From NCBI GenBank assembly GCA_023267215.1, contig JAHFNS010000001.1:239507-303506 (forward strand): a stretch of DNA of 64,000 nucleotides. The letters are read 5' to 3'. Origin of the DNA: Candidatus Nomurabacteria bacterium (GTDB lineage Bacteria; Patescibacteriota; Minisyncoccia; Phycocordibacterales; UBA9973). The position numbers and the translations under genes are program-made. This document shows positions 20,980 to 22,600 of the stretch, in pieces (within the stretch, counting starts at the first letter, position 1; each line of letters opens with the position of its first letter). The notes under the pieces are model-generated. The model ran no database searches. It was not told the origin of the DNA and was given only the letters and a program-made list of their open reading frames with translations.

Positions 20980-22600
20980 CAAATTGAATTATTCCACGAG
21001 CAGCTTCCGCTACCCGTGCCTTGTTACGACTTAGTCCCTGTCACCGAGCTTACCTTAGGCCCTACTTATGTAGAGACTTCGGGTACTCCCGGCTCCCTTG
21101 ACTTGACGGGCGGTGAGTACAAGACTTGAGAACGTATTCACCACAGTTTAGCTGACCTGTGATTACTAGCAATTCCAGCTTCATGGAGTCGAGTTGCAGA
21201 CTCCAATCCGAACTTAGGCCGCTTTTAGACGATTAGCTCAGAGTCGCCTCGTCGCTGCGCGTTGTAACGGCCATTGTATTATGTGTGTAGCCCAAGGTAT
21301 CAAGGGACATGCTGACCTGGCGTCATCCTCTCCTTCCTCCCCCGCCTAAATTCACAAATCCACCTCACCCCAAATACCTGCTGGTATTTTTCCCCTCTCC
21401 TTATTAAGGAGAGGGGTTAGGGGTGAGGTCAAATTTATGTTCTTAGGCGGGGGCAGTATCGTGTGACACTTGTAACACACAACGAGGGTTGCGTTCGTTA
21501 CCCCACTTAAGGGAACAATTCAAACCACGAACTGACGACGGCCATGCATCACCTGTCCTAATGTCTTGCGAGGTCCAATGTTTCTAAAGGATTTCATTAG
21601 GATTTCTAACCTTGGTAAGGTTCTTCGTTTACCATCGAATTAAACCACATAATCCACTGCTTGTGCAAGTCCCCGTCTATTCCTTTGAGTTTTAGCCTTG
21701 CGGCCGTACTTCCCAGGCGGATCTCTTAACGCGTTAGCTAAGCCACTCAGAGGGTCGATACTCCGAATAGCGAGAGATCATCGTTTAGGGCGTGGACTAC
21801 TGGGGTATCTAATCCCATTCGCTACCCACGCTTTCGTGTTTCAGTGTCAAATATGCGCCAGCGTACTGCTTTCGCTTTTGGTGTTCCCCATGATATCAAC
21901 GGATTTCACCCCTACACCATGAGTTCCGTACGCCTTTCGCACTTTCTAGTTTTGCCGTATCTTTCGCATATCCGGAGTTAAGCCCCGGGCTTTAACAAAA
22001 GACTAACAAAACAACCTACACACCCTTTACGCCCAATAATTCCGGATAACGCTCGAGGCTCTCGTATTACCGCTCCTGCTGGCACGAGATTAGGAGCCTC
22101 TTATTCATGAGGTACAGTCAATAAACTTCTTCCCTCATAAAAGATCTTTACGTCCCAGAGGGACTTCATCAATCACGCGGCGTCGCTCCATCAGACTTTC
22201 GTCCATTGTGGAAGATTCTCGACTGCAGCCACCCGTAGGTGTATGGTCCGTGTCTCAGTACCATCGGTGGGGGTCAGGCTCTCACCTCCCCTAGACGTCA
22301 TAGCCTTGGTAGTCCATTACACTACCAACTAGCTGATATCGCACAGGCCTTTCCAAGAGCGTTAAAACTTTACTCTTTGACTTTACGTCTCAGAGACCAT
22401 CGTGTATTAGTCCGTCTTTCGACGAATTATTCACGACTCTTGGGGAAGTTCCTATGTATTACTACCTCGTTCGCCACTAACTTTTCAACATCTCTGAATT
22501 GATATAATCGCATCTTCAAAAATGAAAAGTCCGTTCGACTTGCATGCCTTATCCACGCCGCCAGCGTTCATCCTGAGCTAGGATCAAACTCTAACTAAAA
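20980..22600 (-). rRNA. rrs: 16S ribosomal RNA (about 1.6 kb, carries a ~75-90-nt insertion in the V7 region)
   Basis: Reverse complements of universal 16S blocks are present: CTGAGCTAGGATCAAACTCT (27F region) at 22573-22592, GACGGGCGGTGAGTACAAG (1390 region) near 21105, CCTTGTTACGACTT (1492 region) near 21027, plus the GGGTTGCGTTCGTTA and CTGACGACGGCCATGCA blocks. No 23S or tRNA adjacent. Confidence 0.9.
21361..21430. repeat. GC-rich palindromic repeat copy D, inserted within the 16S rRNA V7 region
   Basis: CACCTCACCCC...TCCCCTCTCCTTATTAAGGAGAGGGGTTAGGGGTGAGGTC, nearly identical to copy F at 41010-41078. Flanked by the rRNA helix CCCCCGCCTAA / TTAGGCGGGGG. Confidence 0.8.

Follow-up and report, generated by a model that had tools for sequence, protein, structure and literature searches.

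The window analysed here is a 64,000-nt stretch of contig JAHFNS010000001.1 (positions 239,507 to 303,506 of the forward strand; assembly GCA_023267215.1, Candidatus Nomurabacteria bacterium), and the feature in question is a GC-rich insert in its 16S ribosomal RNA (rRNA) gene. The best explanation as a whole—to which we give a probability of about 80%—is that the insert is a copy of a dispersed palindromic element that sits at the tip of helix 40, is related to an endonuclease cassette, and spreads at the DNA level. As judged from its sequence, the 66-nt GC-rich segment is shown to be a copy of a dispersed palindromic family that lacks an open reading frame (ORF). Comparison with related 16S genes shows that a helix-40 extension is already present in this Paceibacteria clade and that the element sits in its apical loop; the 16S copy is shown to be present in some lineages and absent from sister lineages. 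The organism belongs to the candidate phyla radiation (CPR)—class Paceibacteria/Parcubacteria, as judged by the relatives retrieved with a 16S signature—as the original prediction had assumed. Contigs and loci used for comparison carry handles of the form L001.

The 16S gene is the single 16S rRNA gene found for this AT-rich small genome. Outside a few points, of which a 103-nt segment is the largest, it is colinear with the bacterial model in a focused Infernal alignment. The gene and the parts of its insert are:

20982-22599, minus strand: full-length 16S rRNA gene (Rfam RF00177, 1352 bits, model positions 1-1533)
21344-21446, minus strand: 103-nt segment in place of the 3-nt apical loop of helix 40 (Infernal/cmscan, [103] vs [3])
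21431-21446, minus strand: 5' strand (rRNA sense) of the AT/GU-rich helix-40 extension, CUAAGAACAUAAAUUU, shared by the element-free L086, L032, L028, L114, and L069
21344-21360, minus strand: 3' strand (rRNA sense) of the helix-40 extension, GAUUUGUGAAUUUAGGC, as judged by fold, relatives, and covariation
21363-21428, minus strand: ORF-less, GC-rich palindromic element of 66 nt, a full copy with two hairpins between the arms CCTCACCCC (21363-21371) and GGGGTGAGG (21420-21428)
21392-21416, minus strand: large conserved hairpin CCCCTCTCC-TTATTAA-GGAGAGGGG, identical to 41035-41059, with a stem that is invariant in six 16S copies
21372-21389, minus strand: small variable hairpin AAAUACC-AGCA-GGUAUUU (rRNA sense), covarying among 16S copies with AU-GC exchanges at two pairs

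The insertion point corresponds to bacterial model positions ~1158-1162 at the apex of helix 40 (Infernal alignment). The flanks ACUGCC...GGAGGAAGG mark the same site—ACUGCC being E. coli 1157-1162—and E. coli 1153-1162, GGAGACUGCC, is listed as h39/h40 (PMC2441807). The original prediction had reported an element at 21361-21430 in the V7 region of the gene. The quoted sequence is indeed found there, within a full-length bacterial 16S on the minus strand; the V7 label is acceptable for a site at the helix 40 apex (Infernal; h39/h40 per PMC2441807), and the covariance-model alignment that had been suggested gives the 3-nt loop of helix 40 as the exact insertion point. The estimate of a region ~75 nt longer than in E. 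coli had to be revised: it exceeds the bacterial consensus by ~100 nt, of which ~66-70 nt are repeat and ~33 nt are an AT/GU-rich extension that related Paceibacteria have without the repeat. The 103-nt segment is hence a composite of the lineage-typical helix-40 extension and the repeat element.

In rRNA sense, the segment folds into a long single helix with a three-way junction as its cap (-78.5 kcal/mol, z -9.5). The 12-bp base stem is followed by a small internal loop, a 10-bp A-U/G-U stem, and a 10-bp GC-rich stem in which ACCUCACCCC is paired with GGGGUGAGGU. The two terminal hairpins are CCCCUCUCC-UUAAUAA-GGAGAGGGG and AAAUACC-AGCA-GGUAUUU, and the composite stem amounts to ~32 bp. The bracketing rRNA stem named earlier, CCCCCGCCUAA/UUAGGCGGGGG, is real and leads into the 10-bp A-U/G-U stem and then into the element's own 10-bp stem; the expected protrusion as an extended helix is borne out by the computed fold and by a modelled consensus structure of six genes. 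In the extension strand 21431-21446, the G-U pairs are invariant in rRNA sense and AU-GC covariation is present. Only spurious ORFs of 32 and 42 aa overlap the insert, with no endonuclease ORF inside it, and an exact look-up of both returns no other contig on record. For the element, Rfam yields nothing at the gathering threshold across the window and nothing at E <= 5 in 19750-20400, apart from microRNA-precursor hairpins far below threshold.

The insert is one of four full and three half copies that motif mapping finds in the window, a half copy being one arm plus a hairpin. Two of the half copies bracket a DUF559 gene. The six further copies and this gene are:

41012-41071, minus strand: full intergenic copy between the stop codon (41077) of a 395-aa gene and its terminator hairpin
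20225-20291, plus strand: full ORF-less copy directly after the DUF559 stop codon, an arrangement also found in L248 and L252
9177-9280 (104 nt), unstranded: full copy in a divergent intergenic region; it has two large hairpins and the layout of the DUF559 cassette minus the ORF
19804-19845, plus strand: half copy forming the left end of the cassette, arm CCTCACCCC and hairpin 1 (CCCCCTCTCC-AGATTACT-GGCGAGGGGG), kept upstream of DUF559 in L248 and L251
20300-20341, plus strand: half copy forming the right end of the cassette, hairpin 2 (CCCCTCTCTGGTACTCCGGAGAGGGG) and arm GGGGTGAGG, also downstream of DUF559 in L251 and L252
27035-27073, plus strand: solo half copy, hairpin and GGGGTGAGG, in a divergent intergenic region
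19865-20218, plus strand: gene of a DUF559 endonuclease (Vsr-like, PD-(D/E)XK fold) of 117 aa (Pfam PF04480, E = 9e-30; PDB 3HRL 'endonuclease-like protein', E = 1e-15)

The family follows one plan. The 9-nt terminal arms are perfect complements, usually extended to CA.../...TG, and enclose one conserved GC hairpin and one small variable hairpin in a non-coding element of 60-104 nt. The copies have a GC content of 51-57% in a window of 33%. The 25-nt hairpin core occurs five times, with 0.00 matches expected, and the arm CCTCACCCC with at most one mismatch occurs 21 times, with 3.4 expected; these counts, far above chance, place the insert in a dispersed intergenic palindromic repeat family, as had been proposed. 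The 16S copy and the 41012 copy agree at 57 positions over 70/69 nt, with both arms and a 29-nt block including the loop being exact. The earlier description of the intergenic copy as nearly identical holds for its existence (at 41010-41073), its arms, and this block but is a mild overstatement for the small hairpin, which is a different one at the same position (12 nt, vs 18 nt in the 16S copy). Relative to transcription, both copies are oriented alike. Three full copies out of four—in 16S, at 41012 (3' of the 395-aa gene), and at 20225 (3' of DUF559)—run from arm through large hairpin and small hairpin to arm on the strand that is transcribed locally, which at n = 3 is an observation and not a rule. 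A literature search with the arm and hairpin sequences returns only unrelated human or viral primer and oligonucleotide matches.

The 41012 copy gives evidence for insertion. The protein upstream of it has an 86%-identical orthologue in L256, where gene order is conserved and the orthologous site is empty: the terminator hairpin directly follows the stop codon. At the same site, the window has ~65 nt, (ATT)CA-CCTCACCCC...GGGGTGAGG-T, between the stop codon and the same terminator. At least this intergenic copy is thus shown to differ by presence or absence between orthologous sites of relatives.

The DUF559 gene lies outside the 16S gene, 764 nt from its 3' end, and forms part of a cassette. 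In the window, an arm and hairpin 1 stand upstream of it, and a full ORF-less copy followed by hairpin 2 and an arm stands downstream. Homologues of this protein are numerous (1065 at E <= 1e-10), mostly from Paceibacteria, and some contigs carry two. Cassette flanks were compared between the window and the DNA of three homologue groups (L248/L250, L251, and L252-L255). Arm and hairpin 1, with the loop A-A-TACT, are found upstream of DUF559 in L251, where the gene follows alaS, and in L248/L250, where it lies beside ddl in synteny with the window; in L252-L255 (beside rplB), full and partial element copies take this place instead. Downstream of DUF559, hairpin 2 and an arm, a full ORF-less copy, or both are present in all cases examined. 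L241 has a less closely related DUF559 (49% identity), located ~375 nt away from its 16S gene, with diverged hairpin flanks in another arrangement. The ~540-bp cassette is a unit with conserved ends in unrelated genomic contexts, so the short copies are most simply read as internally deleted, non-autonomous derivatives. Since the same arms and hairpins bracket DUF559 in four distinct genomic settings, the 16S insert looks like an ORF-less derivative of the cassette. DUF559 is by association the best candidate for a mobilizing or co-travelling nuclease. The literature on DUF559, as far as the listed titles and abstract openings go, describes no repeat-flanked cassette.

Two observations on L248 stand beside these. 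Compared with window 20293-20343, L248 (1920-1935) is without the segment of hairpin 2 and arm that follows the nested full copy. The two differ by a clean deletion that runs from one direct GGGGTGAGGTG(C/T)AT repeat to the other, which suggests that element arms recombine with one another and so reshape these clusters. In addition, a LAGLIDADG ORF lies ~900 nt downstream of DUF559 in L248.

Relatives were collected with a 21-nt 16S signature that was run against one genome per species, which gives 119 loci (813 kb), nearly all from Paceibacteria/Parcubacteria (Nomura-, Kaiser-, Taylor-, Zambryski-, and Yonathbacteria). For 115 16S genes, including four that come from the metagenome scan described below, the helix 39-40 span was taken as the distance between CGCAACCC and the 3' signature:

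84-85 nt (bacterial standard): 21 genes
112-136 nt: 46 genes
151-363 nt: 48 genes

Helix 40 is expanded by 27-278 nt in 94 of these 115 genes, and this wide spread of spans marks it as a general expansion hot spot in the class. An insertion at this site is therefore common in the clade; the content of the insert, rather than its position, is special. The helix-40 inserts of relatives are very diverse and include AT-rich heptamer palindromes and tandem hairpin modules, among others. One to four tandem hairpin modules of ~45 nt, CTGTGG...GTATTTATAT...CCACTGAG, occur in L012, L023, L066, L080, L098, and L112, and long AT-rich palindromes of AATTTTC-type heptamers occur in L064, L014, L031, and L111. 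When these other inserts were compared with the rest of their own 8-kb locus—a test of low power—the only real match was a 27-mer in L072, that of L014 being low-complexity sequence.

The closest species-level relatives by 16S (L065, L062, L043, L034, and L086; 92-94% identical) have an extension of ~30-40 nt and no GC-rich element. The base stem of this gene together with the CAUAAAU.../...AUUUGUGAA motif is present in L086, L032, L028, L114, L069, and L027 with the element missing, so that these genes look like empty sites. None of the 119 loci (813 kb) holds two or more element motifs. Further insertions of 0.5-1.5 kb are seen in the 3' third of the 16S genes of L246 (near the 3' end), L044, L099, L072, L078, L077, L028, and L021; these are of the intron type already described for CPR.

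The same insert was found in other 16S genes by scanning metagenome contigs for the conserved GGAAGGNGNGGATGACG located 2-32 nt after GGGGTGAGG. Of the seven matches, two arose by chance in high-GC non-rRNA DNA; the other five are 16S genes of Paceibacteria that carry the element at precisely this position. Their 16S identities to the gene of the window are:

L243: 98.8%
L242: 94.0%
L241: 92.3%
L246: ~90%
L244: 88.6%

The insertion is thus present in five metagenome 16S contigs and empty in the closest species-level relatives, where the original prediction had advised to look for it. The element shows lineage-specific substitutions in the five contigs. RNAalifold gives the same structure for all six 16S genes, with 48 pairs. 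Compensatory changes are found at eight of these, which belong to the base stem, the AT-rich stem, or the small hairpin. Across the six genes, three G-U/U-G pairs vary little or not at all, and these, as well as a U-G pair in the arm of L241, are possible in the rRNA sense only. Together, compensatory pairs and rRNA-sense G-U pairs show that the helix beneath the element behaves like one formed in RNA.

The distribution of the insert is patchy. In a neighbour-joining tree of 1015 well-aligned 16S columns, from which the variable insert columns were removed, element-bearing 16S genes are interspersed with element-free ones, and monophyly of the element-bearing genes is recovered in 0 of 100 bootstrap replicates. 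L244 groups with the element-free L047, L054, L100, and L037 (bootstrap 100) and differs by 2.6% from L047 (97.4% identical, element-free) vs 10.9% from the gene of the window; L242 groups with the element-free L043 (bootstrap 95), and the gene of the window groups with L062 (bootstrap 78). The insert of L244 has the large hairpin loop AGATTACT, unlike the other 16S inserts, and the same loop is found in the half copy at 19818-19845. The history of the site would be one of several gains, of several losses, or of recombination through the conserved flanks that replaced the helix tip laterally.

The hairpin and arm also belong to a wider repeat type. The foreign copies in L172 and L235 have the same plan of arm, large hairpin, small hairpin, and arm, and a blastn search of plasmids gives four weak partial matches, all to cyanobacterial plasmids and unannotated. 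Phage-like contigs with the half unit (a GC hairpin, 1-6 nt, and GGGGTGAGG) are very diverse, range from 37 to 74% GC with most of them being of high GC, and often carry several copies, sometimes as tandem arrays. This shows that the half unit is a widespread repeat well beyond CPR. In the viral loci, only one pair of oppositely oriented ends encloses an ORF. As an example, L193 (1700-2850; also L135 and L140; IMG/VR contig 3300020057_000061) is phage-like, has 56% GC, and carries seven intergenic tandem half units at a spacing of ~72 nt. DUF559 as the driver of this wider repeat type was considered and dropped, since the viral repeat loci encode none.

The rival explanations of the insert concern its nature and its reality. 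It could be an ordinary, vertically inherited, lineage-specific expansion of helix 40 whose likeness to the intergenic copies is coincidental or due to convergent GC hairpins. Expansions of helix 40, very diverse in sequence, do occur in 94 of the 115 related 16S genes, and the covariation of the stem under the element is that of a normal rRNA helix; however, the helix-40 extensions of relatives have no similarity to the repeat, the arms and the 29-nt block with its loop are identical to an intergenic copy, the three-part architecture is common to the copies at 20225 and 41012 and in L248 and L252, the closest relatives are without the element, and its GC content of 51-57% stands in a genome of 33%. 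We consider this reading very improbable. An assembly chimera, in which reads of an intergenic repeat were misjoined into the 16S contig, would agree with rRNA genes and repeats being classic break points of assemblers and with another assembly of the same organism (L001) that ends at window position 21344, inside helix 40. Yet five independent contigs from other metagenomes (16S 88.6-98.8% identical) carry the insert at the same position with lineage-specific substitutions, and the two flanks of the element are mutually complementary with compensatory changes between species, which together exclude a chimera for practical purposes. A similarly negligible probability applies to a self-splicing group I/II intron or its remnant. 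More than half of CPR rRNA insertions are intron-like (PMC11270868), ~1-kb insertions occur in other 16S genes of the clade, and a LAGLIDADG ORF lies near the DUF559 of L248, but the insert is a segment of only 103 nt that forms a plain extended helix with two hairpins and has neither a catalytic core nor an ORF, and nowhere in the window does an intron family score above the Rfam threshold; the earlier view that it is not such an intron stands.

Several points weigh against the reading of the insert as a mobile, cassette-related element copy. The break of L001 at 21344 is one of them; it could stem from a palindrome that troubled the assembler or from a population that is mixed at this site. 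One old insertion with subsequent losses fits the distribution as well as repeated insertion does, which leaves the pattern ambiguous, and every element-bearing 16S gene has the same kind of AT-rich flank, so that lateral replacement of the tip fits as well as several gains. L241 and L242 have the 16S copy and no dispersed copies in flanks of 10-14 kb. Candidate target duplications—CAAAT at the 16S copy and possibly TAA at the 41012 copy—are equivocal, being short AT-rich strings that do not suffice as evidence; around the 20225 copy stands TGCA, itself palindromic and likewise short in AT-rich DNA. To our knowledge, DUF559 has no demonstrated transposase or homing function and is no known transposase. 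Among the annotated genes of the window from ~5.8 to 64 kb, there is no transposase-like family, including the IS200/IS605-type Y1 transposases (RAYT, associated with repetitive extragenic palindromes). Finally, the half unit is abundant in phage-like contigs, with at least 180 matches, and no DUF559 was found in viral contigs, either by a single-protein search or with a profile against 7,669 ORFs of 120 repeat-bearing viral loci; half units in contigs without DUF559 imply that it is not the general driver of the wider repeat type.

For the mobile element copy, the following mechanism can be proposed. The short copies would be non-autonomous derivatives of the DUF559 cassette that arose by internal deletion; alternatively, they may be a structured shell in which the endonuclease gene rides. 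Spread would take place at the DNA level by endonuclease- or hairpin-mediated insertion, and a further route may be recombination through the conserved flanks, by which related 16S genes would swap the helix-40 segment. Tolerance would follow from the palindrome prolonging a solvent-exposed, length-variable helix as a coaxial stem with a three-way-junction cap. Since a self-complementary element prolongs a variable helix, the core fold of the rRNA stays untouched. A more far-reaching version—DUF559 cassettes being an undescribed autonomous class of CPR mobile elements whose miniatures insert at rRNA helix tips and are kept in the mature ribosome—is speculative and rather unlikely. If true, it would be a live bacterial example of expansion segments made from mobile palindromic DNA.

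With respect to the fate of the insert in RNA, excision and retention are about equally likely. Excision, at slightly less than even odds, would make the insert a classical intervening sequence (IVS): RNase III would cut the ~32-bp composite stem, and the ends would not be religated. The mature 16S would then, with the same near-even odds, consist of two fragments (~1-1165 and ~1170-end), and the element would never enter the ribosome. This agrees with the IVS anatomy of a replaced helix loop, long complementary termini, and sporadic occurrence among close relatives, with reports of CPR rRNA insertions missing from transcripts (PMC9297842), and with the view that short non-intron insertions at known IVS sites are RNase III IVSs (PMC11270868). 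The related Paceibacterium L025 encodes RNase III beside its 16S gene; a tblastn search gives this one copy in a relative and none in the window, which is only part of the genome. Against excision, helix 40 of 16S lies outside the IVS sites described in the portions of the literature consulted, and the sequence of the large hairpin, mostly including its loop, is conserved across 16S genes that diverge by 6-11%, which is more than a processing stem needs. Retention is just as close to an even chance; the insert would then be an expansion segment of the mature 16S, a long stalk that rises from the small-subunit head and bears a three-way junction. Across the class, the length of helix 40 forms a continuum (0 to +278 nt), its base stems are conserved and covary, and the U-G wobble in the L241 arm and the invariant G-U pairs fit only the rRNA-sense strand. 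Hairpin elements at length-variable sites of mitochondrial rRNAs are thought to be harmless (PMC2800124), and E. coli ribosomes tolerate an insertion at 1153-1162, h39/h40 (PMC2441807); however, published comparisons with CPR transcripts, as summarized in PMC9297842, favour the removal of rRNA insertions. If retained, the insert would give the small-subunit head a stalk of 100 nt that carries a three-way junction; if excised, the 16S of these organisms would be split.

The 16S gene has further features of its own. A second, smaller expansion is located in helix 6/V1 (22483-22520, minus strand), with 35 nt vs 6 in the model. The 3' tail (window 20982-21010) reads ...GGAAUAAUUCAAUUUGAAAACCG, and the CCUCC anti-Shine-Dalgarno (anti-SD) sequence is missing, as in 104 of 105 related Paceibacteria 16S genes (L002-L120 and L241-L246). 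The anti-SD position holds a covarying small palindrome: UUCA-AUU-UGAA, CUCA-AAU-UGAG, or UCCA-AU-UGGA. The repeat family is rich in SD-like GGAG/GAGG strings, which would be without an anti-SD partner in this lineage. No 23S, 5S, or tRNA gene is linked to the 16S gene within the 64-kb window. Its neighbours encode a membrane protein with a lycopene-cyclase domain and a 938-aa secreted repeat protein, for which an exact look-up finds no match on record.

Elsewhere in the window, a LOOT RNA (RF03000, 85 bits) at 61157-61276 on the minus strand stands directly upstream of a gene (60506-61105, minus strand) that encodes a protein with a T5orf172/MUG113 (GIY-YIG-like) domain. An apparent defence island at 51491-55005 (minus strand) and 56148-58167 (plus strand) features HamA (PF08878) and an 862-aa DEAD/ResIII helicase as a Hachiman-type pair, which adjoins two N6/N4 DNA methyltransferase genes. 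A borderline cobalamin riboswitch at 34125-34261 (plus strand; 34.0 bits vs a cut-off of 31.5) lies upstream of the ORFs at 34278-36309.

The Paceibacteria helix 40, with 0 to +278 nt, offers a natural system for the gain of length in rRNA, a question usually asked of eukaryotic expansion segments and mitochondrial rRNAs. On the practical side, inserts of this kind break assemblies, shift the lengths of V7 amplicons, and can mislead placements based on 16S alignments.

Among known systems, the Rickettsia palindromic elements and the repeats of the MITE type (miniature transposable elements with inverted repeats) and of the repetitive extragenic palindrome (REP) type are dispersed, non-coding palindromes of ~50-150 bp that are polymorphic and fold aside within functional genes. 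The 16S element resembles MITE/REP repeats by its several dispersed copies, its terminal inverted repeats, its lack of coding capacity, and its presence or absence at orthologous sites. It differs by having no linked transposase of a known family, no clear target duplication, and ends that are shared with an endonuclease cassette rather than an insertion sequence; classical REPs are, in addition, species-specific, whereas the hairpin and GGGGTGAGG half unit spans very different genomes. With respect to the nuclease, I-Bth0305I is a Vsr-like (EDxHD) homing endonuclease. The DUF559 cassette shares with such systems a small nuclease of the Vsr/PD-(D/E)XK fold in a selfish cassette and homologues in multiple copies and unrelated contexts; unlike in these systems, the DUF559 gene lies outside an intron or intein, and its nuclease activity is predicted from sequence.

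Comparable mobile hairpins are the double-hairpin elements of Allomyces mitochondria. The yeast mitochondrial GC clusters are likewise GC-rich palindromes in an AT-rich genome, both intergenic and in variable rRNA helices (PMC4478555); help by an endonuclease has been suggested for them, and exchange by recombination of the flanks has been observed (PMC4478555). The repetitive hairpin-forming elements of sponge mitochondria are small intergenic palindromes that also occur inside rns and rnl (PMC2800124). Mitochondrial hairpin elements share with the family described here double or triple hairpins that merge and nest, and helper endonucleases encoded elsewhere have been proposed; they are organellar, belong to unrelated sequence families, and have no DUF559 cassette, whereas the present element resides in a bacterial genome.

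The IVSs of bacterial rRNA, for example those in helix 25 and helix 45 of 23S in Salmonella, Leptospira, and Coxiella (for Coxiella, PMC4990558), resemble the 16S insert by replacing the loop at the tip of a conserved helix, by complementary termini in a long stem, and by a sporadic occurrence among close relatives. They are regarded as selfish or horizontally moving, and some have forms with and without an ORF, which the 16S element shares. Differences are that 16S helix 40 is not a described IVS site, that classical IVSs are not known as members of a dispersed intergenic repeat in their own genome, and that an IVS encodes the four-helix-bundle protein S23p/23S_rRNA_IVP inside, whereas DUF559 is encoded elsewhere.

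The closest counterpart in organism is found in CPR, where 48% of 16S genes have insertions of at least 100 bp and many rRNA insertions encode LAGLIDADG endonucleases (PMC11270868). The remaining short, ORF-less rRNA insertions of that survey, which has a 100-bp cut-off, were left uncharacterized and are possibly IVS-like (Tsurumaki et al. 2024, PMC11270868); the word 'repeat' occurs 0 times in its main text. Like these, the insert described here is ~100 bp long, free of introns and ORFs, located at a recurrent site, and scattered across the host phylogeny of the same organism group; unlike them, it is identified as belonging to a dispersed palindromic element, for which there is a candidate parent cassette. 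The link of a short CPR rRNA insertion to a dispersed mobile repeat appears to be new. It gives one such ORF-less insertion an origin—a GC-rich palindromic element that also forms the ends of an endonuclease cassette—and suggests that mobile hairpin DNA can lengthen a bacterial ribosomal RNA.

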